A stretch of DNA of 25,552 nucleotides from a virus. Taxonomy: Duplodnaviria > Caudoviricetes. Position numbers and translations under genes: made by a program. Positions 6,990 to 25,552 of this stretch are shown here, piece after piece; within the stretch, counting starts at the first letter, position 1; each line of letters starts with the position of its first letter. The stretch lies in IMG/VR virus record IMGVR_UViG_3300014872_000008, positions 1 to 25,552 of that record. One strand, given 5' to 3'. Under the pieces are notes generated by a model that did no database searches, was not told where the DNA came from, and saw nothing but the letters and a program-made list of their open reading frames with translations.

Positions 6990-7010
6990 CCCAGCGGAGA
7001 CGCAGCCTCG
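6905..7010 (+). ncRNA. Putative omegaRNA (reRNA) 3' scaffold plus guide
   Basis: Stems ggcgc/gcgcc, gagtcg/cggctc and atcgtc(6958-63)/gacgat(6978-83) end in GTCAC and overlap the tnpB 3' end, as known for TnpB omegaRNAs. The 5' boundary is unknown. Confidence 0.45.
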
Positions 7011-7040
7011 CGTCCACATCCAGCGGAGACGGAGCGGTAG

Positions 7041-7217
7041 ATGGCCAAGACGACGATTGAAACGCACGAGGAGATTTGCTCGCTGTGCGTCGGGAGCGGC
7101 ACGCTTCTGGAGTATCCATATCCACCACACGAGACGACGACTGCCGGGCCATTCTCCGTGCAGTGCCGTCAATGCGGTGGGCGGGGGTTCGTGGTGACAA
7201 AGCGCGTGATTCGATAG
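7041..7217 (+). CDS. Small DnaJ-type zinc-finger protein (58 aa)
   Basis: Translated by hand: MAKTTIETHEEICSLCVGSG...CRQCGGRGFVVTKRVIR, with two CxxCxGxG motifs; GGAG upstream. Confidence 0.75.
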   Translation: MAKTTIETHEEICSLCVGSGTLLEYPYPPHETTTAGPFSVQCRQCGGRGFVVTKRVIR

Positions 7218-7406
7218 GTGGAGGACTAGCTAGTCGTGGGAAAGAATCGAGCGATCACGTTCGGCAAATGCACGATCTGTGGCAAGAAGACGCAGGCGGC
7301 TGACCCGTTCTGGTTGAAGCGGTGCCCAGCCTGTTGAAAGAAGCTATGGAAGTCTCGCAACAATAAATACGACGGCAGCGATTAGTGCGCAAGGTGGAGG
7401 ACTAGC
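7216..7406 (+). repeat. 15-bp direct repeat AGGTGGAGGACTAGC (7216-7230, 7392-7406), each containing an SD
   Basis: Exact match read from the sequence. Confidence 0.85.
7236..7385 (+). CDS. Small Zn-ribbon protein with in-frame TGA at 7335-7337 (33 aa, or 49 aa if read through)
   Basis: GTG start after GGAGG: MGKNRAITFGKCTICGKKTQAADPFWLKRCPAC*KKLWKSRNNKYDGSD*. Confidence 0.6.
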
Positions 7407-7408
7407 CC

Positions 7409-7549
7409 ATGCTGACCCCCAATGACACGAGCGGAAGCGTGTGGCGCGATGACTGGCGCGTCGTGACGACGAGTCGCATTGTGCAGATGATCATGGTGCG
7501 CGTGACGACACGAGCGCCGCAACCGTTGGAGACGAGGACAGACCGATGA
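7409..7549 (+). CDS. Hypothetical 46-aa protein
   Basis: GGAGG SD; stop overlaps the next ATG (7546). Confidence 0.55.
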   Translation: MLTPNDTSGSVWRDDWRVVTTSRIVQMIMVRVTTRAPQPLETRTDR

Positions 7550-7933
7550 CCCCCGAGGATCTCCAGCGGCTCCAGGACCTGGCGCGGAAGGCGACACCTG
7601 GACCGTGGGCGGCCGAATGCGATGACCAGGACGGAAACATTCGCAGCCGTCATGTTCGAGGTGCGCGACAGCAAGACGGAGCATATGGCCGTGGCTGATT
7701 CGTGCTTTACAGAGGATGCCGACTTCATCGCCGCCTGCGATCCCCAGACCATCTTGGCCCTGTGCGCGATGGCGGCCGGTACAACGCTCGCCTCTTTCCG
7801 CCCCCTACTGGAGCGGGCGCTGACGGATGAGGTGTTGCAGTGGGCGCTGAATGACGCCATCAACGAGGGCTTTCCAGAGATGCGCAACGTCCTCCTGACC
7901 GCCCTCCTCGCGGCGCTGACGGAGGGACGATGA
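7546..7933 (+). pseudogene. Ead/Ea22-like protein split by a frameshift
   Basis: LQRLQDLARKATPGPW (frame of 7546, stops ~7698) and DADFIAACDPQTILAL (frame of 7622) are the two halves of one family signature. Confidence 0.7.
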
Positions 7934-8250
7934 AACTGACCGACGCCGTGCTCATTGAGGCGCTGAATCGAGGGACTGATGCGCTGGCGGACGGGCGACC
8001 AACGTCGCGCGAGCGACGGTACGCTGATGCGGCCGATGCGATGCGTGAGGTCATCATCGCTGCCCAACCCGACGCGCCCGCGCCGACGTGCGCGACGTGC
8101 CAGCAATTTCGTGGCGACAAGGCGACAGGGAGACGCCATGACGGCGGATGGTGCGCCTTCGGCGTTCAACGACCGGATGCTTCGCTGCTGATGTTTCCGG
8201 CGCATGAGCACTTCGGCTGCATGCTGCACACGCCACGGACCACCCAATGA
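7930..8250 (+). CDS. Hypothetical protein, Cys-rich C-terminus
   Basis: GGAGG SD, ATGA overlap; CATC...WC...FGCxLH. Confidence 0.7.
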   Translation: MKLTDAVLIEALNRGTDALADGRPTSRERRYADAADAMREVIIAAQPDAPAPTCATCQQFRGDKATGRRHDGGWCAFGVQRPDASLLMFPAHEHFGCMLHTPRTTQ

Positions 8251-8468
8251 CGCTGACCCGCCTGAACCGCTTCTACTCACTCTACCTCTGGCGCACCCAC
8301 TACGTCTGCCGGTGCGGGGCGTTCCTGCCGAAGGATGGGCGCGAACTGCACGAGCAGTTCCACGCCGCGGCCAGAGAGTTCTTCCAACCACCGACTGGCA
8401 ACGACCTGGCGTGGATACGGCAGGCGCTTGAGGCTCAGCCCACGCCAAAAACGGAGACACCGCGATGA
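8247..8468 (+). CDS. Hypothetical protein (C2H2-like CRCG...HEQFH)
   Basis: ATGA overlaps at both ends. Confidence 0.65.
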   Translation: MTLTRLNRFYSLYLWRTHYVCRCGAFLPKDGRELHEQFHAAAREFFQPPTGNDLAWIRQALEAQPTPKTETPR

Positions 8469-8905
8469 TCCAGCCCATTTCACGACGCGGCTTTCTCTCA
8501 GCTCTGATGGCCGCGACGGCGTCAGCCTCCGTGCTGGCGATTGAGGACCCTGAGCGGTTGCTCTGGGAGCCCGGGAAGAAGACCATCATCGATCTCGGCG
8601 CCCAGATCGCGCCAGCGACGCTCCAAGAAACCACGCAGATCACGTCTGGCTTCCAGGCGATGCTGTTACAGGAGCTAGCGCAGGGGCGAGCACCGTTGCC
8701 AGTTCGGCCGCTGTATATGCCGGACCGCTACCGGATGACGCTAGGCAATGGGACCGAAATGAACTTCGATTCGGACTGGAAGCTACAGCGCGGCGCCGTG
8801 GGCGGACGGCCCATGAATGATCGCGAGAAGGCGAAGATGGCGGCCGAGTTCGATCACGCTCGACGCCAGAAGATCAACCTGCGCACCTTTCGACTGGAGG
8901 ATTGA
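8465..8905 (+). CDS. Twin-arginine signal peptide protein
   Basis: N-terminus MIQPISRRGFLSALMAATASASVLA fits S-R-R-x-F-L plus an Ala-rich h-region; followed by DPERLLWEPGKKT. Confidence 0.75.
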   Translation: MIQPISRRGFLSALMAATASASVLAIEDPERLLWEPGKKTIIDLGAQIAPATLQETTQITSGFQAMLLQELAQGRAPLPVRPLYMPDRYRMTLGNGTEMNFDSDWKLQRGAVGGRPMNDREKAKMAAEFDHARRQKINLRTFRLED

Positions 8906-8907
8906 GA

Positions 8908-9066
8908 ATGCCGAATCTAGGAATGACGGAGATGTTGATCATTGGCGGGATTGCGCTGCTCATCTTTGGGCCGAGTCAACTCCCGAAACTGGGTCGTTCG
9001 TTGGGGGCGACGATCCGAGAGTTCCGTGGCGTCGCCAAGGAGCTGCACGGCAAGGACGAGGAGTAG
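8908..9066 (+). CDS. tatA: TatA/E family twin-arginine translocase subunit (52 aa)
   Basis: Translated by hand: MPNLGMTEMLIIGGIALLIFGPSQLPKLGRSLGATIREFRGVAKELHGKDEE. It shows GxxE, a TM helix, the FG hinge and the LPxLGRSLG..IREFR amphipathic helix; GGAGG SD at 8896-8900. Confidence 0.93.
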   Translation: MPNLGMTEMLIIGGIALLIFGPSQLPKLGRSLGATIREFRGVAKELHGKDEE

Positions 9067-9070
9067 GCGC

Positions 9071-9484
9071 ATGGTGATGTCAGCCGAGAATGTCGCGAGT
9101 CCGCCGGCCGAGCCGCTCAGCGTCGAAACCCTTCTCCTCGAGGTCCAGGCGCTCTCGACGAAACTCGCGGAACGTGGGGCGGCGTTAGGCGGCCTGAAGG
9201 CCGAAATTGCCGAGAAGGTGGTCCGCGAAGTGCAGGGCGCGATCACCGCCCAGACGGTCTCGATCATCGGCCGGGAAGTGGCGCACCGGTTCGAGCAGGA
9301 ACTCGACAAGCGCGTCATCGCCGCGGTTGCGGACCTATTGCCGGCGGTCATGCGGGCTCATGCGCTGGTGCCGCTTGCGGATGTGACCGAAGCCGTTGAG
9401 CGGGCCGTGGACGCCAGCATCTCGCGTCGGTTGGCGCAACTCATCGGCGGCGGCGAACTGCACATCGGCCTGAAGCGGGCCTAA
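9071..9484 (+). CDS. Hypothetical helical/coiled-coil protein
   Basis: GAGGAG upstream; ATG 9071 or 9077. Confidence 0.65.
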   Translation: MVMSAENVASPPAEPLSVETLLLEVQALSTKLAERGAALGGLKAEIAEKVVREVQGAITAQTVSIIGREVAHRFEQELDKRVIAAVADLLPAVMRAHALVPLADVTEAVERAVDASISRRLAQLIGGGELHIGLKRA

Positions 9485-14832: not shown

Positions 14833-15266
14833 CCCTTCACGCCTTGCTCGTCATCCTCTGGCTGCTGGCCCTGCACTTTCTGGCCGACTTCGTCCTGCAG
14901 AGCGATCGGGTCGCCCAGGCGAAGTCCAAGGACTGGGGGATGCTTGGGATGCACGCCTCGTTCTACGCCGGCATCGTTGGGGTTGGGCTGTTCTTGGCCG
15001 TTGGCGTCGGCGCCGCGCTCTTGACGTTCTATCTCATCACGCTCGCCGCCCACTTCCTGACGGACGCGGTCACGAGCCGGGTCAACGCGAAGCTCTGGCC
15101 GCTGACACCTCTGAGCCATATCCATCAGCAAGACGCCTTCGAGCCTGTGTTCGCGCTGCGCTACGGTAAGGGGTTTCACAACTTCTTCGTCGGCGTCGGC
15201 TTCGACCAACTGCTGCACCAGGCGCAGCTCATCCTCACGGCCTACGGGCTGGGGCTGCTCAGATGA
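14829..15266 (+). CDS. DUF3307-like membrane protein
   Basis: HFLADFVLQ, H..Y, HFLTD and GFDQLLH motifs within TM helices. Confidence 0.75.
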   Translation: MTLHALLVILWLLALHFLADFVLQSDRVAQAKSKDWGMLGMHASFYAGIVGVGLFLAVGVGAALLTFYLITLAAHFLTDAVTSRVNAKLWPLTPLSHIHQQDAFEPVFALRYGKGFHNFFVGVGFDQLLHQAQLILTAYGLGLLR

Positions 15267-15790
15267 TCGTCACCTGTCCTCACGCGGAGTGCGGCAAAAC
15301 CTACAACGACGCGCGGCGCTGGACGATCTGTCCGCATCGGTCGCTTGACGAGTCGCCAACGACGGCCGAGACACGGCTCGCGCGATGTCTGAATTGCGGC
15401 GCAGACTACGACTACGACAACAAGTCGCCGATGTGCCCGCATCTGGTGTCGCGACCAGAGTCGCTACCGCCGCCGCTACCAGACAGTGTTGAGGTCGTGG
15501 GGGTAGTGGCCTCGCACGGGCGCGGCCAGGTCCTCTCCATCGTCGACCGCGTCAAGCCAGTGGACGTCACCGACAACCGGAAATGGACCGCGGAGACCAT
15601 GCTCCTGGAGCTGCTCGAGGAGATCCGATCGGGCAAGACCGTCCCTGTCAACCTGATGCTGTTCTTCTCCACCCAGGACGCGGACGGGACGCTTCGGCCG
15701 AACACGTGGTTCCAAAACGTCACCACGACCGAGCGTATCGTCTACTTGAACTTCGGGATCGCGCAGGCCATCGACGAATGGCGGAGTTGA
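15263..15790 (+). CDS. Hypothetical protein with two small Zn-ribbon repeats
   Basis: CPHAECGKTY...ICPH and CLNCGADY...MCPH. Confidence 0.7.
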   Translation: MIVTCPHAECGKTYNDARRWTICPHRSLDESPTTAETRLARCLNCGADYDYDNKSPMCPHLVSRPESLPPPLPDSVEVVGVVASHGRGQVLSIVDRVKPVDVTDNRKWTAETMLLELLEEIRSGKTVPVNLMLFFSTQDADGTLRPNTWFQNVTTTERIVYLNFGIAQAIDEWRS

Positions 15791-15971: not shown

Positions 15972-16235
15972 ATGCGCGCATCCTTCTCGATCGATAGCCT
16001 CCACGAACTTGAGATCACCGGTGACGTGCCACGGCACGAGCACGACCCGGCGAGCGTGTGTCTCAACGTCCTCCGCACGCCGCTCCCGGTGAAGAACGTC
16101 TATGGGCCGAAGGAGGCCGGACCGGAATACACCCAGGGACCGACCGAGACGATCATCTCGGTGAGCCTGCGTCCGAGCCATGCTCGGGCCATCGCGAGCG
16201 CGATGCTCTCGGCGGCCACAGAGGCGCGCGGATGA
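15972..16235 (+). CDS. Hypothetical protein
   Basis: AGGAG SD upstream of ATG 15972. Confidence 0.7.
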   Translation: MRASFSIDSLHELEITGDVPRHEHDPASVCLNVLRTPLPVKNVYGPKEAGPEYTQGPTETIISVSLRPSHARAIASAMLSAATEARG

Positions 16236-16513
16236 TGCGTGCCGGGCCTGTTCCGACGGATCTCCTGGCGGCGTCAGCCCGGGCGACCAGGCTCGCGGAC
16301 GAGCTCCATCGGCACGCGGACTGGTTGCAATCGATCCATCGCTGGGACGACGCCAGGGCGATCCGTGGCGCCGCGAGAAGCGCGGCCCAGATCGCGTGGC
16401 TGGCATCCGGCCGCGGCCAGCGCCGGGCGAGGCGCGTCGTCCACCCAGCAGACACGCCGGCCACGCGCGGCCTGCGTGCGCCGTTCCGCCCGTGGTGGCG
16501 CTTCTGGTGGTGA
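16232..16513 (+). CDS. Hypothetical protein with C-terminal PWWRFWW
   Basis: ATGA and GTGA overlaps with both neighbours. Confidence 0.6.
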   Translation: MMRAGPVPTDLLAASARATRLADELHRHADWLQSIHRWDDARAIRGAARSAAQIAWLASGRGQRRARRVVHPADTPATRGLRAPFRPWWRFWW

Positions 16514-17298
16514 CGCGCCACGACGCCGTTCTCGTGGAACTGGCGACCCGAACGAACGTCAAGTTCAACCGCTACTTCCCGACCTGCACGCCCGCGTGTC
16601 ACCCGACGTCCCTACGGAAGGAGGATCACAGCGGCCTGTGCCGGGCGCTCTACGTGAAGCATGCGCAGTTCATGGCCGCCGGCGCCATCCATCGGGAGCG
16701 GCTGTTCATGGCGGCCAACCGGATCGGGAAGACGGAGACGGTCTCGTTCGAGGTCGCGGCGCACATGACGGGCCTGTACCCGACATGGTGGAGGGGACGC
16801 GAGTTCGACCGACCGGTGCGCGCCTGGGCCTCTGGCGACACGATGCTGACCACGCGCGACATCCTCCAGGTCGCGCTGCTCGGGCCGGTGGACTGCGTCG
16901 ATACCAGAGACTGGCGCGGCATGCTCCCCGTCCACTTGATCGTCGACACGACCCGAAAGAGCGGTGGGGTGTCGAAGTGCCTCGACCAGGTGTGGGTTAA
17001 GCACGTCAGCGGTGGGCGCTCGATCTTGGAGTTCAAGAGCCATGACCAGGGTCGGCGGGCCTTCCAGGGCACCGAACAGGACGTCATCGTGCTCGACGAG
17101 GAGCCGCCGGACGACGTCTACACGGAGTGCCTGCTACGCACGATGACGACCGATGGCCTGATCCTGTGTTCCATGACGCCGCTCCAAGGGCTGACGCCGT
17201 TCGTGCAGCAATACCTCGAGACAGCCACGATGATTGATAGCGATGGCCTCGCCCAGAAGGCGAGCGAAGCGGTGTGGCCGAGTGGGAGTGCGGCATGA
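16510..17298 (+). CDS. terL: Terminase large subunit, N-terminal ATPase part
   Basis: Walker A AANRIGKT, TGLYPTWW.G, Walker B VIVLDEE, coupling motif MTPLQG; P22 gp2-like. Confidence 0.9.
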   Translation: MTRHDAVLVELATRTNVKFNRYFPTCTPACHPTSLRKEDHSGLCRALYVKHAQFMAAGAIHRERLFMAANRIGKTETVSFEVAAHMTGLYPTWWRGREFDRPVRAWASGDTMLTTRDILQVALLGPVDCVDTRDWRGMLPVHLIVDTTRKSGGVSKCLDQVWVKHVSGGRSILEFKSHDQGRRAFQGTEQDVIVLDEEPPDDVYTECLLRTMTTDGLILCSMTPLQGLTPFVQQYLETATMIDSDGLAQKASEAVWPSGSAA

Positions 17299-17486
17299 GC
17301 CGCTGTCCCATTTGCGACGGGGAGGGTTGTATTACTCCACATGAAGACGAGATCCCGTGGGGACTCGGACCCGCGCTGAGACCGGCGACAGTCAGGCGAC
17401 CACCGGTGCAAGTCGCTGATCCTCGCGTCCCAAGCGGCATACCGGCACCTGATGACGACGACCTCGACGGGGCGAGGATCTATTGA
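17295..17486 (+). CDS. Small protein (CPICDGEG) between the two terL halves
   Basis: GGGAG SD; ATGA overlap with terL-N and TTGA overlap with terL-C. Confidence 0.6.
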   Translation: MSRCPICDGEGCITPHEDEIPWGLGPALRPATVRRPPVQVADPRVPSGIPAPDDDDLDGARIY

Positions 17487-18229
17487 GTCGATTGGTCGTG
17501 TCCGCCACGTGGGATGACGCCCCGCACCTCGATGAGGCGACCAAGGCGCAGCTCTGGAACTCCATCCCGGCGTATCAGCGTGACGCTCGGACAAAAGGGA
17601 TCCCCCAACTGGGGTCCGGCGCGATCTACCCGTTTCCGGAAAGCCAGTTCAAGGTCGCGATCGCCGACGAGTTCGAACCGCCGAAGCACTGGCCGAGGGC
17701 GTTCGGCGGAGACTGTGCCCTCTCGGGCGTCACGGCGGCTGCGTGGGGGGCTCTCGATCGCGACAGCGACACGCTCTACGTCTACTCGGTCTACCGGCGA
17801 TCCCAGGCCGAGACGGCCGTCCATGCGGACGCCATCAAGGCGCGCGGGGTCTGGATCCCAGGCGTCATGGACGCCGCCGACGTGCTCGACCATGACCGGA
17901 CGCAGTTCATCACCCTCTACAAACGCCACGGGCTGGACGTCATGTTGCCGGACAAGGCGGTCGAGGCTGGCATCCAGGACGTCTACGACCGGATCAGCGC
18001 CGGGCGTCTGAAGGTGTTCGCGTCCTGCGTAGCGTTCTGGGACGAGTTCAGGCTCTACCAGCGCGACGAGCGCGGGCGCGTGGTGAAGAAGAACGATCAC
18101 GTCCTCGACGCGGTCCGTTACCTCGTGCGCACGGGCCTACGGCACGCGAAGGTGAAGCCCGAGCCGAAGGAGGAGGTCACGCATCTTGAGTATGAGCAGG
18201 GGCGCGCCAACCTCACGTGGATGCAGTAG
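17483..18229 (+). CDS. terL: Terminase large subunit, C-terminal (nuclease) part
   Basis: TWDDAPHL, RDARTKGIPQLGSGAIYP, GGDC, EFRLYQRD..VKKNDHVLDAVRY; TTG start. Confidence 0.9.
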   Translation: MSRLVVSATWDDAPHLDEATKAQLWNSIPAYQRDARTKGIPQLGSGAIYPFPESQFKVAIADEFEPPKHWPRAFGGDCALSGVTAAAWGALDRDSDTLYVYSVYRRSQAETAVHADAIKARGVWIPGVMDAADVLDHDRTQFITLYKRHGLDVMLPDKAVEAGIQDVYDRISAGRLKVFASCVAFWDEFRLYQRDERGRVVKKNDHVLDAVRYLVRTGLRHAKVKPEPKEEVTHLEYEQGRANLTWMQ

Positions 18230-18269
18230 CGTGGAGTTCTCGGAACGTGCCACCCTGTCCGCGTTCACG

Positions 18270-18788
18270 ATGTGCTCTCCAGCACGACGTACACCATGTT
18301 GCACGGCGACGGTGCAGAGCTATCGGCGAGGGTGTCGCTGCTTGCTGTGCCGGGCGGCGAATGCGGCAGATGAACGGCACCGTCGGCACACGCGCGAGCC
18401 GAGACTGGTGCCGACGACTGACCTGCGCGTGACGATTCAAACCTTACGCGCCAAAGGGATCGGGCTGAAGCAGATCGCGCGGCTGGCACAGGTGAGCCTG
18501 TTCACGATCAGTAGCGTGGCCAGTGGACGCTCTCGGCGCGTCCGGCGCAACACCGCCGAGCGCATCCGCACGATACGGCCGGTGCGCGCGGCGAGTGCCA
18601 AGGTGTCGGCGTGGCGCAGTCGGCGTCTGGTCGAGGCCCTGGTCGCCGAGGGCTACTCGATCGAGACCATCCGGGCGCGCGCGCGCCTCTCGCGGTTCGT
18701 TATGAGCCGGTTGGTCCAGCGTCAGTTGAGGGTCTACGTCAGCACGCAGAGTCGCTTGGCGATGGCCCATGACGCGATGACCACGTAG
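18270..18788 (+). CDS. Zn-finger + HTH DNA-binding protein
   Basis: YRRGCRCLLC followed by GIGLKQIARLAQVSLFTISSVASG and a second HTH-like segment; start uncertain. Confidence 0.7.
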   Translation: MCSPARRTPCCTATVQSYRRGCRCLLCRAANAADERHRRHTREPRLVPTTDLRVTIQTLRAKGIGLKQIARLAQVSLFTISSVASGRSRRVRRNTAERIRTIRPVRAASAKVSAWRSRRLVEALVAEGYSIETIRARARLSRFVMSRLVQRQLRVYVSTQSRLAMAHDAMTT

Positions 18789-18870
18789 CGATGCGCGTTG
18801 GGGGTGTGAATAACCACGTTCACGCGAATCACCCTCACGATGTTCGTGGGGGGTATGAATAACCACGTTC
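18789..18870. repeat. Imperfect 33-bp direct repeat (18789-18821, 18838-18870)
   Basis: 29/33 identical; core GGGGGTRTGAATAACCACGTTC; 49-bp period. Confidence 0.85.
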
Positions 18871-18888
18871 TACAAACGGAGACGACTG

Positions 18889-19224
18889 ATGGATGCAACG
18901 ACCGCCCAGAAGCCCGACTCGATGGTGTCCATGACCGCGCCGAAAGCGGCGCCAGACGCGAAGTCGAGCGGCACCATTCGATCCGTGCGCGTCGAGCCGG
19001 CCGACGGCGGCTTCATCGTGAACATCGACCGCGAGAGCGGCGATGGTGGCATGGGCTCCATGCCGAAGCCGCACGTCTGCAAGGACGCCGCGGAACTGCA
19101 CGCCTACATCGACGAGGCACTCGGCCTGGCGGCAGCGCCTGAGCCGGCGCCGGCGATGGAGGACGAGAACATCCGCATGGACGCCTACGAGGCGCCCGAG
19201 CCGTCGAGCCAGTTCCGCGGGTAG
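18889..19224 (+). CDS. Hypothetical protein
   Basis: GGAG SD; GC3 bias. Confidence 0.7.
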   Translation: MDATTAQKPDSMVSMTAPKAAPDAKSSGTIRSVRVEPADGGFIVNIDRESGDGGMGSMPKPHVCKDAAELHAYIDEALGLAAAPEPAPAMEDENIRMDAYEAPEPSSQFRG

Positions 19225-19237
19225 GTGGTCGTCTGCG

Positions 19238-19525
19238 ATGGCGAAGCCCAAGCCTGACTACGGCGCAGTGGCGAACCACGGTCTGCGCCGGCAAGCCCAT
19301 CTCGAGCGTCTCGCCACGCTCGAACGGCAGCGCGATGAGGACTGGCCACGTGTCCAGGCAGCGCTCGAACGGGCCGAGGAAGCTCGAATGATCACGCTCG
19401 CGCAGGGCATCCATACGGAGCAATTGCTCCAACAGATCTTCGCCCAGGTGCCAGAGGACCGACGGTCGCAGGTCGAAGCGCGGATTCGTCCGTTCACGAA
19501 GATCCAGGTGTCGGTCGATGGATAG
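19238..19525 (+). CDS. Hypothetical helical protein
   Basis: AGGTGG upstream; overlaps the next gene. Confidence 0.6.
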   Translation: MAKPKPDYGAVANHGLRRQAHLERLATLERQRDEDWPRVQAALERAEEARMITLAQGIHTEQLLQQIFAQVPEDRRSQVEARIRPFTKIQVSVDG

Positions 19526-19832
19526 ACGCGCGTTCTTGAAGGCGATTGGGATAGGTGCCGCCAGCATGGCTGGTGCCATGACCCTTGATCCCGAACTGGC
19601 GCTCTGGGTGCCAGGGCGCAAGACGTTCTTTCTGCCGACTACTGTTGTGCTTGGGCCAGGCAACACGTTCCTGACCATCGAACAGATCACGCGCGAAGCG
19701 CTCCGCATGTTAGAGAGCAACGTGTCGTTCGCTCGGCGCATCAATCGTCGCTACGATGAGCCGTTCACTGCCGGGGCCGGGACGATCGTCAGCATTCCAG
19801 CGCCCCCGCGATACGTATACGCACTCACGTAG
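19518..19832 (+). CDS. Twin-arginine signal protein fused to a copy of the coat-protein N-terminus
   Basis: MDRRAFLKAIGIGAASMAGAM + DPELALWVPGRKT + NTFLTIEQITREALRMLESN...PPRY, which aligns with the coat ORF in this window. Confidence 0.82.
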   Translation: MDRRAFLKAIGIGAASMAGAMTLDPELALWVPGRKTFFLPTTVVLGPGNTFLTIEQITREALRMLESNVSFARRINRRYDEPFTAGAGTIVSIPAPPRYVYALT

Positions 19833-19844
19833 GAGAGACACCCA

Positions 19845-19937
19845 ATGGCTGGAGCCACAGCAGGTTCGAAGGGCAGCATGAAGACGGTCGCCAAGGTTGC
19901 CGGTGGCCGGGTCGACTCGGGCAAGAAAAGCAAGTAG
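19845..19937 (+). CDS. 30-aa basic Gly/Lys-rich peptide
   Basis: AGGAGA SD; MAGATAGSKGSMKTVAKVAGGRVDSGKKSK. Confidence 0.6.
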   Translation: MAGATAGSKGSMKTVAKVAGGRVDSGKKSK

Positions 19938-19949
19938 CGTGCGTCCTGG

Positions 19950-20025
19950 TGCTGGGTAGAGCAGTGGCCAGCTCGTTCGGCTCATAACCGAAAGGTCGCG
20001 GGTTCGAATCCCGCCCCAGCTACCA
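19950..20025 (+). tRNA. tRNA-Met (CAT), initiator-like
   Basis: Full cloverleaf: acceptor tGCTGGG/CCCAGCt, D stem GAGC/GCTC, anticodon stem TTCGG/CCGAA with CAT at 19983-85, T arm GCGGG-TTCGAAT-CCCGC, encoded ACCA. Confidence 0.95.
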
Positions 20026-20174
20026 ACTTCAACGACGCCAGCGCCCGGTGACGCTGGCCTCTCGACGCCCATTCACTGTCTTCGCGTTGATTGTTCTGTT
20101 CGGACTCGCGACCCGGACGATGGTTTGGCTGACGTTCCCCGTGGAACATCGGCCGAAGGATCGCCCGATTCGCG

Positions 20175-20447
20175 ATGCTCGAGCAGCTTCCCAAGCACCT
20201 GTCCCGCCAGGACGCAGACTCGCGCGAGCGATGGTCGATCGCTGCGTACAAGGTCCTCTCGGACCAACTGAGTGACGACGGGCTGTTACTCCTGATCGCG
20301 GCCGGCCGTCAGAAGTTCCTGAAAGACTCCCGGCTGGCGTTCCGTGGTCAGGACTTCCGCGAGGATGACCACGAGCGGATCTGGCAGCTCCTCATGAGAC
20401 GGGCCAGAAAGTTAGCGTCGAACGGTCCGGTTACGATCTATGGCTGA
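20175..20447 (+). CDS. Hypothetical protein
   Basis: Helical ORF overlapping the portal start; start uncertain. Confidence 0.55.
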   Translation: MLEQLPKHLSRQDADSRERWSIAAYKVLSDQLSDDGLLLLIAAGRQKFLKDSRLAFRGQDFREDDHERIWQLLMRRARKLASNGPVTIYG

Positions 20448-22824
20448 CCCACGCACGGTCCGCCTGACCGAGCCGGCGCTGCAGCTCGGCGCGCAGGTGC
20501 CCGATGGCCAAGTCAGCCTGACGCTATCCGACACGGACGTCTCGCCCGCGCAGGCCAAACGGGAGAAGATCGCCGCGTTCCTGGCGCTCGCCAAGACACG
20601 CTTCAAGCTCGTCTCCTCGACCGAGTCTCAGCTACGCCAGGACATGCTCGACGACCTAAAGTTCCGGGCGTCCGAGCAGTGGGACGCGACGGCGATTGCC
20701 GATCGGCAGGCGGACGGACGGCCGTGCCTGACGATCAACCGGCTCGCGCAGTTCGTGCGGCAGGTCACCAACGCCCAGCGGGCGGCCAACTTGGCCGTGA
20801 AGGTCACGCCGGTGGATGACGGGGCCGACGTCAAGACGGCCGAGACGATGCAGGGCTTGGTGCGGCACATCGAGCAGCAGAGCGACGCGCAGGTGGCCTA
20901 CGCGACCGCCAGCGACCATCAGACCACGATGGGTCGTGGCTACTGGATCGTCGATACCGAGTACGAACACGAGAAGAGCTTCGTCCAGGGCATCAGGATC
21001 AAGCGCATTCGTAACCCGTTCACGGTGTTCATGGACCCAACGGCGCAGGAAGCGGACGGGTCAGACGCCCGGTTCGGGTTCATCGTCGAGGATGTCCCGA
21101 AGGACGAGTACAAGGTCCGCTTTGGCGACGCCGCCATGGCGAGTCTTGAGGAGTTCATGGGCGCCGGCAGCCGCGAGCCAGACTGGCTGCCCGAGGGGAA
21201 GGTCAAGATCGCGCTGTACTGGTATGTCGCGCAGGAGACCACGACCCTCTACCTGGTCGAGTACAAGAACGGGCAGCAGGAAGCGCTGACGAAGGAAGAA
21301 CTGGAGCAGATCCCAGCACCATTGGCCGTCTACACGGTCGTCAATTCGCGGCCAGTGACACTCAAGCGCGTGAAACGCGCCTTGATCAACGCCGCCGAGA
21401 TCCTCGAGGGGAACAACGACCTGACAGAGGGCCGTGACTGGCCTGGCAAGTGGATCCCGATTGTGCCGGTGCTCGGCGACGAGCTGGACATCAATGGGCA
21501 AGTGGACTACCGCGGCATGATCCGCGATGCCAAGGACCCGCAGCGGCTCTACAACTTTCAGAACTCCGCCCTGGCCGAGACGTTGGCGCTCGTGCCGAAG
21601 GCGCCGTTCATCGGGGCTGAGGGGCAGTTTGAAGGGCACGAGGCGAAGTGGAAGTTGGCGAATCGTCGCGCCTTCCCCTACCTCGAATACAAGGTCAAAG
21701 ACATCAACGGGGTCGCTCTGCCGCCACCGCAGCGGAGTTCCGCCGGCGCCGACATCGGCGCGATCATGACGGCCATCCAACAGTCGGACCAGGACCTCAA
21801 GGCGACGATGGGGCTGTTCGAGCCATCGCTCGGCATCCGCGACAGTAACCAGCAGTCTGGCCGGGCCATCCAGGCGCTCCAGAAGCAGGGCGAGCAGGCC
21901 AACTCCAACTTCCTCGACAACCTGAGCCGGGCGATCCGGTTCACGGGCCGGATCATCGTCGACCTCGTGCCGCACATCTACGACGTGCCGCGGGTGTTGC
22001 GGATCATCGGCGACGACGAGACGGACCGGAAGGTCATGGTGATGTCGGGCCCGAACGCGCCGGCCAGCATGACGCCAGAGGCCATGGAAGAGCAGGAGAT
22101 CGACGGGATCTTCGACCTGTCCATTGGCCGCTACGACGTGATCTGCCAGGCCGGCCCATCGACCGCAACGAAGCGCGACCAGGCGCTCCAGGCGCTCACC
22201 GGGTTCGTGCAAGCCTACCCGGCGGCATTCCCACTGCTCGGGGACCTGCTCGTCGGCAGCTTGGACTGGCCAGGGGCCCAGGCGGCGGCCAAGCGTCTCA
22301 AGGCCGCCATCCCGCCAGAAGTGCGCGACCAGGACGGCGCCAGCGAGACCGACCCGCAGCAGCTCATGGCGCAGATACAGCAACTCATGCAGCAACTGGA
22401 GATGGCGAACGTCGCCCTGCAGGAGGCGCAGCAACTCGTCCAGGGCAAGCAATTGGAACTCCAGGCCCAAGAGCGGATGAAGCAGATGGAACTCGACTCG
22501 CGCGAGCGGATCGAGGGCATCAAGGCGGAGGTCTCCGCGCTGCAGGTGCTGACGAAGGTCAAGGCCGACGCCGCCATCGCGGACCGGAAGATCGGGGCCG
22601 AGATGCTCGAGCAACGGATCGACCACGCCCATGAGCGGGCGATGGCGGCGCAGGCCCGCGCCGACGACCGAGTCGAAGCCGAGGAGGGCCGAGAGGCGAA
22701 CCGGGAGGATGCGCAACGCACTCGGTTCGATGACCGGGTGGACGCGACCGTGAACCGGGTGCGCGACCGCACTGACGCGGACCGACAAGGCGAGCGAGAC
22801 CGCGCGAGCGGGCCGCCCGCATGA
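20440..22824 (+). CDS. Portal protein, P22-like
   Basis: DDLKF..EQW..R..DGRPCLTINRL, WIPIVPV.G, GMIRDAKDPQRLYN, SGRAI and a Q-rich C-terminal coiled coil; lies between terL and scaffold. Confidence 0.92.
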   Translation: MADPRTVRLTEPALQLGAQVPDGQVSLTLSDTDVSPAQAKREKIAAFLALAKTRFKLVSSTESQLRQDMLDDLKFRASEQWDATAIADRQADGRPCLTINRLAQFVRQVTNAQRAANLAVKVTPVDDGADVKTAETMQGLVRHIEQQSDAQVAYATASDHQTTMGRGYWIVDTEYEHEKSFVQGIRIKRIRNPFTVFMDPTAQEADGSDARFGFIVEDVPKDEYKVRFGDAAMASLEEFMGAGSREPDWLPEGKVKIALYWYVAQETTTLYLVEYKNGQQEALTKEELEQIPAPLAVYTVVNSRPVTLKRVKRALINAAEILEGNNDLTEGRDWPGKWIPIVPVLGDELDINGQVDYRGMIRDAKDPQRLYNFQNSALAETLALVPKAPFIGAEGQFEGHEAKWKLANRRAFPYLEYKVKDINGVALPPPQRSSAGADIGAIMTAIQQSDQDLKATMGLFEPSLGIRDSNQQSGRAIQALQKQGEQANSNFLDNLSRAIRFTGRIIVDLVPHIYDVPRVLRIIGDDETDRKVMVMSGPNAPASMTPEAMEEQEIDGIFDLSIGRYDVICQAGPSTATKRDQALQALTGFVQAYPAAFPLLGDLLVGSLDWPGAQAAAKRLKAAIPPEVRDQDGASETDPQQLMAQIQQLMQQLEMANVALQEAQQLVQGKQLELQAQERMKQMELDSRERIEGIKAEVSALQVLTKVKADAAIADRKIGAEMLEQRIDHAHERAMAAQARADDRVEAEEGREANREDAQRTRFDDRVDATVNRVRDRTDADRQGERDRASGPPA

Positions 22825-23125: not shown

Positions 23126-24244
23126 ATGCCTGACATTCGACTCGACTCGACGACGAACACACGTGAAGAGGTCGCGGCTGCGCTCGGCGTGACGCCCGTG
23201 ACGCCTGAGACCGTGCCCGTGGTCGCACCGGTGGCCGCGAGCGAGACCGTTGTCGCGCCAAAAGCCACGCCAGAGACGCCAGCGGTCGAGAAACCGGTGG
23301 CCGCAAGCGAGACCAAGCCAGCCGAGACGGACGACGACGACTCGGACGACGAACCCGATCCGCAGGACAGTTCCGAGGCTGGACGCGCCCTCTCGACGCG
23401 CCGCCGGAAGATGCAGCATCGCATCGACAAGCTGACCTTCGAGAAGCACACGAGCGTGGCCGAGCGCGACCGCGCGCTGGCGAAGGCCACTGAGCTGCAG
23501 GCCAAACTCGACGCCCTCACGAGCGGCAAGCCGGCCACCGATCCAGTTAGCGATCCGGTCAAGACGGCCGATCCGGTCAAGCCGGCGACGTTCGATACGC
23601 CGCGGCCAAAGCAGGGCGACTTCGACGACTACGAGAAGTACGAAGAGGCGCGCGACGCCTGGGTCGAAGCCAAGACGGCGTTCAACATGAACGCGGCGCT
23701 GGCCGAGCGCGACCGCAAGGCCGCCGAAGCCGTGCTCGCCGCAGAAGAAGTCCAGCGGCGAGCGACGCTCGCCCGCGAGATCGCGGACGAGGACGCCGCT
23801 TATCAGCGGCGCCTGGTCGCCGCGAAGGCGAAGCATCCGGACTTCCAGGACGTGTTCGAGCAGGCGAAGGACCTCGCGGTCAGCCGCCCGATGCTCGACC
23901 ACATGCGGTTCTCCGAGATGGGCGCCGAATTGACGTACTACTTCGCGACCCATCCGACCGAGGCCGAGCGCGTGGCGCAGATGGCACCGGCGCCGGCGAT
24001 TGCCGAGATGGGACGCCTGGAAGCGCGCATCGAGGCCGGGCTGATTGGTGGTGCCTCTGACGCGCCACCGACTGCCGGCATGGCCACCGTGTCAGCGCCG
24101 GCACGCGTGCCCGTCAGCAAGGCCCCGGCGCCGATGACGCGCCCGGGCGGTGGATCCACGACCTCGAGCAAGCCGCTCGACGAAGAGGACTACCAGACGT
24201 TCAAGCAGCGCCGACAGGCCGCCATCGCGGGCTCCCGTCGGTAA
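23126..24244 (+). CDS. Scaffolding protein
   Basis: Acidic/Pro-rich N-terminus, RIDKLT coiled coil, PKQGDFDDYEKYEEA, KHPDF..V, GAELTYYFATHP; between portal and coat. ATG 23126 preferred over 22976. Confidence 0.82.
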   Translation: MPDIRLDSTTNTREEVAAALGVTPVTPETVPVVAPVAASETVVAPKATPETPAVEKPVAASETKPAETDDDDSDDEPDPQDSSEAGRALSTRRRKMQHRIDKLTFEKHTSVAERDRALAKATELQAKLDALTSGKPATDPVSDPVKTADPVKPATFDTPRPKQGDFDDYEKYEEARDAWVEAKTAFNMNAALAERDRKAAEAVLAAEEVQRRATLAREIADEDAAYQRRLVAAKAKHPDFQDVFEQAKDLAVSRPMLDHMRFSEMGAELTYYFATHPTEAERVAQMAPAPAIAEMGRLEARIEAGLIGGASDAPPTAGMATVSAPARVPVSKAPAPMTRPGGGSTTSSKPLDEEDYQTFKQRRQAAIAGSRR

Positions 24245-24442: not shown

Positions 24443-25552
24443 ATGACTCCTACCTCGCTCTCCAAGTTCTGGGTGCATGACTCGCTGTTCGTGCGCCTCG
24501 GCACACTGCTCGTCGTGGCCCTTATGGTGGCCCTGTCGTGGGCGACCCCGGCCAGCACGATCAGTTTGGCCGACAACGTCCTGCTCACGATTGCGATGAT
24601 CACGCGCGAGGCATTGCGCGTGCTCGAGAACAACCTCACCTTCACGAAAAAGGTGAACCGGCAGTTCGATGACAAGTTCGGGGTCGAAGGCGCTAAGATC
24701 GGCACCGTCGTGAACGTGCGGAAGCCACCCCGCTACGTCACGCGCACCGGCCAGGCCCTGCAGGTCCAGGACGCGGTCGAAACGCAGGTACCGGTCACGC
24801 TCAATCAGCAGATTGGCGTGGACCTGTCGTTCTCATCGGCTGACCTCGCGCTGTCGATCGATGACTTCTCGCAGCGGTTCATCTCCCCAGCGATTGCCGC
24901 CGTGGCGAACCGGATCGACCAGCTCGGGCTGCAGCAGTACATCAACCTGAACCAGATCGTGGGCACGCCCGGCACGGTGCCGAACGCGCTCCTGACGTAT
25001 CTGCTCGCTGGCGTGGCGCTCGACAATAGCGCGGCGCCCATGGACGGCCAGCGGTCGATCACGATCAATCCGCTCATGCAGGCGACGATCGTCGACGCCC
25101 TGAAGGGACTCTTTCAGCAGGCGACGGCCATCGCGAGCCAGTACGAGAAGGGCGTGATGGGCACGGCGGCCGGCTTCGACTGGCAGATGGACCAGAACAT
25201 CGCCACGAACACGATCGGCCCGCTCGGCGGGACCCCGCTCGTGGCTGGCGCTGGCCAAACGGGCGCGACCCTGGCCACCGACGGCTGGACCGCCGCGGCA
25301 GCGAATCGACTCCTGCGTGGCAACACGTTCACGATCGCTGGGGTCTACCAGGTGAACCCGCAGAGCCGCGAGTCCACCGGCGTGCTCCAGTCGTTCCTCG
25401 TGACGGCGGACACAGCCAGCGACGGCGCGGGACTGGCCTCCATCCCGATCTTCCCGTCGATCATCACGTCCGGTCAGTTCCAGACGGTGACTGGATCCCC
25501 GGCCGACAATGCGGTGATCACGGTCCTCGGCGCGGCCAACACGGTCTCGCCG
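24443..25552 (+). CDS. Major capsid protein, P22 coat-like (3' truncated)
   Basis: Translated by hand: ...ADNVLLTIAMITREALRVLENNLTF...KIGTVVNVRKPPRY...FSSADLALSIDDFSQRFI.PA...GFDWQMDQN; runs off the window. Start is ATG 24443 or TTG 24566. Confidence 0.9.
   Translation, partial: MTPTSLSKFWVHDSLFVRLGTLLVVALMVALSWATPASTISLADNVLLTIAMITREALRVLENNLTFTKKVNRQFDDKFGVEGAKIGTVVNVRKPPRYVTRTGQALQVQDAVETQVPVTLNQQIGVDLSFSSADLALSIDDFSQRFISPAIAAVANRIDQLGLQQYINLNQIVGTPGTVPNALLTYLLAGVALDNSAAPMDGQRSITINPLMQATIVDALKGLFQQATAIASQYEKGVMGTAAGFDWQMDQNIATNTIGPLGGTPLVAGAGQTGATLATDGWTAAAANRLLRGNTFTIAGVYQVNPQSRESTGVLQSFLVTADTASDGAGLASIPIFPSIITSGQFQTVTGSPADNAVITVLGAANTVSP

Follow-up and report, generated by a model that had tools for sequence, protein, structure and literature searches.

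The fusion gene and its surroundings

The window, by which we mean the whole stretch of 25,552 nucleotides analysed here, carries on its plus strand a terminase large subunit divided over two ORFs (16180-18229; ATPase part to 17298, nuclease part from 17483, by Pfam/profile match), a P22-like portal gene (20440-22824, PF16510), a head scaffolding gene (23126-24244, phrog_8865) and a P22-like major coat gene truncated by the contig end (24443-25552; BLASTP, PHROGs and Pfam). Placed between the two-part terminase and the portal, which begins about 0.6 kb downstream of it, is the fusion ORF that forms our subject (P0001, 19518-19832, plus strand), beside a tRNA-Met (CAT) lying within the head module just downstream (19950-20025, plus strand). 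About 185 bp separate the two terminase ORFs; a split terminase also occurs on L001, L012, L043 and L120 among the related loci, a leader gene sometimes lying between the halves. At 18800-18870, 5' of a 111-aa ORF, stand two near-identical copies of a ~25-bp G-rich/AATAACCACGTT motif that are possibly regulatory, and 110 bases at 15237-15346 are skipped by one contig of DNA run X1, which is either a variant or an assembly difference.

The fusion ORF encodes 104 aa beginning with MDRRAFLK, and its ATG overlaps the stop of a 95-aa upstream ORF (19238-19525). Residues 1-23 (19518-19586) form a Tat-like leader, D-R-R-A-F-L-K followed by a short Ala/Gly-rich hydrophobic stretch; the N-terminus scores 19.9 bits against the Tat signal model TIGR01409, above the cut-off of 16.7, so that the Tat motif noticed in a preliminary description from the letters alone passes a formal model. 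Residues 24-40 (19587-19637, DPELALWVPGRKTFFLP), delimited by leader alignment, are a family-specific box with the consensus DPExLLWxPGxKTxFLP between signal and arm; its D, L, W and P are invariant in 46 leaders, and among the sequences surveyed here it is found in phage-like contexts only. Residues 49-99 (19662-19814) copy the N-terminus of the window's own coat, whose donor segment lies at 24575-24736. The same two segments had been paired in the preliminary description, and the pairing holds: residues 40-100 share 29 of 64 positions with the window coat (BLASTP, E 1e-17), residues 48-99 correspond to positions 2-53 of the phrog_283 major head protein (PHROGs), and the coat-profile match covers positions 1-54 of 403, the ORF ending 5 residues beyond. 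Because the accessible part of PMC9965877 sets the limits of the P22 coat N-arm at 2-30 and of its F-loop at 34-50, the copy is taken to comprise the N-arm helix and F-loop.

Over 52 aligned codons the arm and its own coat are 58% identical in DNA; 28 residues are identical, 17 of them through different codons, and pS (0.73) and pN (0.31) are near saturation. The earlier suggestion that diverged DNA with a kept protein implies selection is borne out by these 17 of 28 residues and by the omega values of coat cargos given below. Resemblance to the P22-like coat (PF11651, phrog_283; HK97 fold) is thus confined here to N-arm and F-loop, whereas the complete HK97 fold with its P- and A-domains is absent and a Tat-like leader is added; lacking both domains, the protein should be unable to form a capsomer alone. 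Pfam returned no match at E 0.1, and the predicted structure (pTM 0.36) has a long helix at 54-83 and no compact fold. One database record calls an 88-aa form instead (P0004, 19566-19832), starting at the second Met and without the RR motif; AGGTG stands 8 bases 5' of this Met, which is not kept across the leader-fusion family. The window coat ORF, from its ATG at 24443, opens with a 42-aa hydrophobic N-terminal extension (24443-24568) containing a transmembrane-like stretch, with TTG at 24566 as an alternative start; such extensions occur in 6 of 17 coats of these loci, the window's included, several of which have no start codon right before the conserved N-terminus, and a membrane-anchored coat precursor is possible.

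One metatranscriptome contains 40% of sampled window words. Contigs of RNA run X2 partly cover the scaffold gene and the coat gene; they also span 19778-20440, which takes in the last 55 bases of the fusion ORF as well as the tRNA-Met; the contig gaps at 19518-19777 and 7000-9475 do not show absence of transcript. The library may contain DNA and its contigs carry no strand information; expression of the fusion ORF is barely shown, these contigs giving a weak hint of it. No promoter-like (sigma-70-type) site was found in 17400-21000. Elsewhere in the window, a second leader gene (P0002, 8465-8905, plus strand, 146 aa) has the same leader and box ahead of a cargo that matches no coat profile, and its stop is overlapped by a phage-borne TatA/E gene (8902-9066, plus strand; PF02416 at E 8e-18, TIGR01411 above cut-off). 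Neither the conserved box, nor this second leader gene, nor the TatA gene directly behind it had figured in the preliminary description.

A leader with many cargos

A phmmer search of 1.84 billion representatives returned 640 matches at E<=1e-3, 97 of them at 1e-10, where each match stands for a cluster at 50% identity. The search of viral databases for fusions of a Tat motif and a coat arm, which had been proposed as a check, therefore yields a family with homologues and without the picture of neutral decay. All members examined share one layout, namely leader, box, then cargo. The best 150 of the 640 are 77-314 aa long; among 150 proteins inspected (the query and 149 matches), RRx(F/L)(hydrophobic) is present in 148, the two exceptions appearing N-terminally cut, and a coat profile made from 14 full coats of related loci is matched by 147 of 149 cargos. 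Conserved positions agree between the 150 arm fusions and 17 coats (Spearman 0.74), Gly/Pro and buried-looking positions included, an agreement that is inflated because the sets were chosen by likeness to the query or the coat profile. The glutamate of the REAL motif is present in 92% of arm fusions, and their match to the coat stops at a median coat position of 53.

Members of 160-310 aa continue through the E-loop and spine helix and then jump to the C-terminal strands of the P-domain. The predicted structure of a long member (pLDDT 76, pTM 0.67) compares with major capsid proteins at best at E 3e-5 and TM 0.53, and with the CUS-3 coat at Z 7.6 and rmsd 5.0 over 135 residues; on this model the long members would represent an HK97 core without A-domain. 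Foldseek with the long form gave nothing in the PDB at E<=0.001, with capsids top-ranked, and a PDB sequence search retrieved weakly matching Tat leaders only (best E 0.014). The ESM Atlas held hypothetical proteins only (scores up to 0.83), with no structural match above TM 0.36. A single-protein scan of viral contigs gave no match, and a search for longer fused forms with an 80-row alignment found none, likewise missing the known members of 241-314 aa, so that it carries no weight against a full-length coat behind this leader. P0085, P0084, P0149 and others look like a leader followed by a mini-coat without A-domain, and several mini-coat fusions have an extra amphipathic-looking stretch of 30 residues ahead of the RR motif.

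The range of cargos becomes apparent when the leader, not the arm, is followed. With three scans and a DNA pattern, 168 loci were collected; the window's own record, which was among them, was dropped. Their 184 leader ORFs comprise 153 different cargos. At E<=0.05, 56 of the 151 cargos that reach 25 aa match one or another of five coat profiles (47 at 1e-3), against 0-0.2 matches per set for shuffled and 0-1 for reversed cargos. Where loci had been found by the leader motif alone (50 loci), 28 of 44 cargos are coat pieces. A leader-only profile recovered 888 clusters at E<=1e-5 among 7,999 scored; 51 of the best 120, a set overlapping the earlier ones in part, have coat cargo (44 at 1e-3), and 69 have no assignment. 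Besides the P22-like type, coats of the phrog_14242, phrog_212, phrog_9953 and phrog_133 types are represented, five families in total. The pieces come from the N-arm, spine helix, I-domain and C-terminal strands; the A-domain (positions 140-235) is covered by none of the 31 locus cargos and none of the 147 protein cargos matching the profile. By eye, L081 is a possible A-domain exception, its own coat being the best-scoring one yet below the profile threshold. A terminase Walker-A region was recognised in 2 of 59 proteins without coat match, and a head-tail adaptor in 1 of 150 locus cargos. At least two leader genes occur in 17 of 135 non-redundant loci, among them L083 (1493-2530), where three tandem overlapping genes upstream of the portal carry N-arm, I-domain and C-terminal pieces.

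Judged from these sequences, the leader is a mobile module whose cargos are virion and packaging pieces far beyond their genome share. The preliminary idea of a capsid-arm mimic was right in seeing a selected, conserved fusion and too narrow in its subject, since the arm is one of many cargos. A cellular origin of the leader found no support: when 400 other genomes were drawn from either of two phyla and up to 18 candidates were scored in each genome, no match appeared. None of 50,697 GenBank phage records contains the whole fusion, and the 11 that match do so via their coats. Seven loci fall into bins assigned to Acidobacteria, Pyrinomonadaceae, Bryobacteraceae, Pseudomonadota (two), Casimicrobiaceae and Armatimonadota, the binning of phage contigs being weak evidence of host.

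Capture, selection and Tat features

Are the coat pieces heirlooms of a single fusion event, or have they been acquired more than once? In a tree of 33 arm fusions (out of 85 long enough) and 17 coats over 56 columns, fusions interleave with coats, with 7 label changes and an AU p of 0.033 against a single fusion clade, and end branches are 0.77 for the fused arm versus 0.076 for the coat. Coat cargos have thus probably been captured repeatedly, as far as such short alignments tell. A second cargo group of 18 sequences, of which 5 records were searched, points the same way as regards the source of its cargo: in 5 of 5 the cargo aligns with the N-terminal end of a ~420-aa ORF encoded by its own phage, and of three such ORFs tested two are phrog_14242 major head proteins. 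In all five the leader gene lies on the strand opposite the coat gene, and in five annotated loci it sits among DNA polymerase and primase genes, in the replication arm, a placement suggesting that its product is made before the coat. The window arm scores best on its own coat among 18 (145 versus a median of 90); across the P22-type cases, the window included, the phage's own coat ranks best in 4 of 9, 2-4 in three, and 10 and 12 in the other two, and it is the sole best in none of six cases of the second group. Tracking of each phage's own coat by the cargo is therefore only partial.

Selection was gauged on 49 pairs; these were required to share >=52% cargo identity, which biases omega downwards. 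Among the 8 non-identical pairs with pS below 0.5, omega is below 0.5 in 7; four coat-cargo pairs give 0.08, 0.18, 0.27 and 0.39, and one non-coat pair gives 0.98. By this measure the coat cargos are under purifying selection.

The leader conforms to the Tat consensus Z-R-R-x-hydrophobic-hydrophobic as stated in the accessible part of a 2026 Tat review (PMC13673990), and the motif is present in 120 of the best 120 leader-only clusters, the query profile itself having contained it. Like Tat signal peptides (TIGR01409/PF10518), the leaders carry this motif at the N-terminus, and the stretch that follows would be their h-region; this candidate h-region is hydrophobic (mean Kyte-Doolittle 1.73) but short, and, counted from the F of RRxFL, it differs from ordinary Tat signals in being only 14 residues long in 145 of 255 leaders and 18 in 47, that of the window's fusion having 18. 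Two further departures are the phage-specific DPExLLWxPG box and the passenger, a piece of a cytoplasmic virion protein in place of a folded periplasmic enzyme. AxA directly precedes the box in 66 of 255 leaders, so that a conserved cleavage site is absent from the family; the window's protein has A-G-A at 18-20 and might therefore be cleaved, though this is no family trait. Leader-region Cys (lipobox) occurs in 3 of 255 and not in the window's fusion. Given these AxA and Cys counts, an uncleaved anchor would be the likelier form, as in the class III Tat anchors, e.g. Rieske proteins (excerpt of PMC13673990), in which neither AxA nor lipobox is conserved. TatA is encoded on 8 distinct contigs, the window included, and on 6 of these it lies directly beside a leader gene or overlaps one; pairs like that at 8465-9066 recur on L002, L031, L121, L124 and L163. 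In these 6 cases the leader gene carries no recognised coat cargo, and among the 65 loci that measure at least 8 kb, only 4 have TatA. The window's fusion is, on all these comparisons, the coat-N-arm version of a real, selected phage module, firm in its architecture, whose function we infer.

Readings of the module and their significance

Why would a phage set a piece of its own coat behind an export signal? One might suppose a decaying duplication or a chance ORF without function, seeing that no family model names the protein and RNA support for the ORF is slight; but the 640 related clusters, the near-invariant RR, the low omega in 7 of 8 close cargo pairs and the recurrence of the same layout with five coat families make this highly improbable. 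Alternatively, the leader itself may be the active part and, with phage TatA, occupy or stall the host Tat or leak ions, the cargo being a sticky passenger from nearby genes. Leader and box are the sole constant parts, many cargos are unrelated to coats, TatA adjoins leader genes with non-coat cargos, one non-coat pair shows an omega of 0.98, and Tat substrates that expose unfolded hydrophobic parts stall at a late step and impair growth (excerpt of PMC13673990). We nevertheless consider such jamming quite unlikely, for coat cargos from five families make up 43-64% of leader-only samples, occur even where the coat gene is far off on the other strand, and keep coat-specific residues under purifying selection. 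Less improbable, though still unlikely, is an attack on competitors, in which the fragment would be exchanged into the coat subunits of a related phage in the same cell, or cap them, and would pull them to the membrane or out of the cytoplasm: conservation tracks structural positions of the coat and ends near position 53, the three tandem genes of L083 supply N-arm, I-domain and C-terminal pieces, and for several cargos the coat of some other phage scores as high as that of their own phage, or higher. Yet the genes lie on the sense strand of head or replication modules and would be made during the phage's own assembly, the lack of a sigma-70-type site at 17400-21000 speaks against separate expression, and for the window arm, closest to its own coat of 18, the result would be self-poisoning.

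A role in the phage's own assembly ranks above these while remaining unlikely. Anchored at the membrane, the arm would engage scaffold or coat subunits of its own phage and determine where or how fast procapsids assemble; in the accessible part of PMC9965877, D14, E15 and E18 of the P22 N-arm bind the scaffold C-terminus, which fits the glutamate kept in arm fusions. Of 28 loci that have a P22-like portal, 26 place the nearest leader gene on the portal's strand and upstream of it, the coats with hydrophobic extensions might themselves reach the membrane, and the long members are predicted to fold as an HK97 core. When arm residues 44-104 and the scaffold C-terminus were modelled as a complex, from alignments of 80 and 13 rows respectively, the score was 0.00, which is counted neither way. 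Against this role, a true Tat substrate would exit the cytoplasm, the fused arm drifts far more than the coat does, and absence of the fusion from GenBank phages means that it is not needed to build such a head. Moreover, cargos from the I-domain, the C-terminal strands, terminase or adaptor would each call for a partner of another kind and cannot all nucleate a procapsid or bind scaffold, and in the second group the gene is found in the replication arm, on the other strand from the capsid gene. Of the roles floated in the preliminary description, the procapsid tether is weakened by these varied cargos and this placement, and the decoy is favoured.

What the cargos have in common is a likeness to virion and packaging proteins and not a shared binding partner, and for that reason we favour, tentatively (probability about 0.38), a reading of the window's fusion as a membrane-docked bait for host sensors of virion proteins, which would be held at the Tat translocon or exported through it. 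Host TatC would read the RRxFL of the leader, and the short, probably uncleaved hydrophobic stretch would anchor the protein in the membrane; before export, the cargo would face the cytoplasm and bind a putative sensor of a short or partial coat pattern without firing it; the caught sensor might then be parked at the membrane or exported as a passenger, phage TatA helping. Host sensors are reported to respond to coat, to terminase and to portal adaptor (excerpts of bioRxiv 10.64898/2026.01.04.697583 and PMC13728456), and the varied pieces share no single phage partner. Also counted for the bait are the origin of the cargo in the phage's own coat family (5 of 5 in the second group; own coat best of 18 in the window), the interleaving of fusions with coats, the probable production of second-group cargos ahead of the coat, the TatA genes adjoining leader genes, and the tolerance of small unfolded Tat substrates described in the accessible part of PMC13673990. 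Cargos without A-domain are what would be expected of a bait that avoids triggering.

That same absence cuts the other way, however: the best-described coat sensors, Avs7, Avs8 and Avs10, bind the folded A-domain (excerpt of bioRxiv 10.64898/2026.01.04.697583), so that the target would have to be another, short-motif sensor, of the kind that Lit and CapRel are said to be (excerpts of the same preprint and of PMC13728456). Arm fusions keep the conserved residues of the coat, which binding to a coat-like body would explain at least as well; own-coat tracking is loose, TatA-abutting genes lack coat cargo and TatA itself is rare, half or more of the cargos have no assignment, and a mimic could also turn the sensor on. 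More doubtful than the bait reading of the single gene is its extension to the entire family, in which the leader would be a modular platform capturing coat, terminase and adaptor pieces, sometimes in tandem, and together with phage TatA would expel capsid-sensing immune proteins from the cytoplasm through the host's exporter of folded proteins.

Were the bait reading correct, how would it relate to what is known? An analogy may be drawn with phage counter-defence binders, likewise small optional phage proteins for which binding to defence proteins is proposed; Tad3-6 bind ThsB, and ICP1 Gp145 is an antitoxin mimic, but in the accessible part of PMC13728456 such binders do not duplicate the protein by which their phage triggers the defence, and they have no export signal. 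PMC13728456, PMC13673990, PMC9965877, PMC13128918 and bioRxiv 10.64898/2026.01.04.697583 contain, in their accessible parts, no description of the fusion family, and in that of PMC13673990 phage come up only in connection with the phiX174 lysis protein and in titles of cited works. In the published literature searched, supplements and most subscription papers aside, no description of a leader-coat fusion family came up either, nor any comparable employment of the Tat pathway by a phage; within that scope the module is undescribed.

The export step proposed for the partner of the bait would resemble hitchhiker co-export by Tat, in which, as Rodrigue et al. reportedly found in 1999, a subunit with a signal takes a partner that lacks one along with it across the membrane; the cases known concern cellular enzyme complexes, whereas removal of a target is only proposed here. 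Whichever reading applies, a widespread, selected module in which an export signal precedes copies of the phage's own virion pieces must bear on the sensing of phage by the host, on head assembly or on competition between phages, and fusion proteins of about 100 residues are testable in E. coli. If the bait reading is true, removal by export would be a new counter-defence route, and the list of cargos would be a map of the virion epitopes that bacteria detect, in uncultured soil and sediment hosts.
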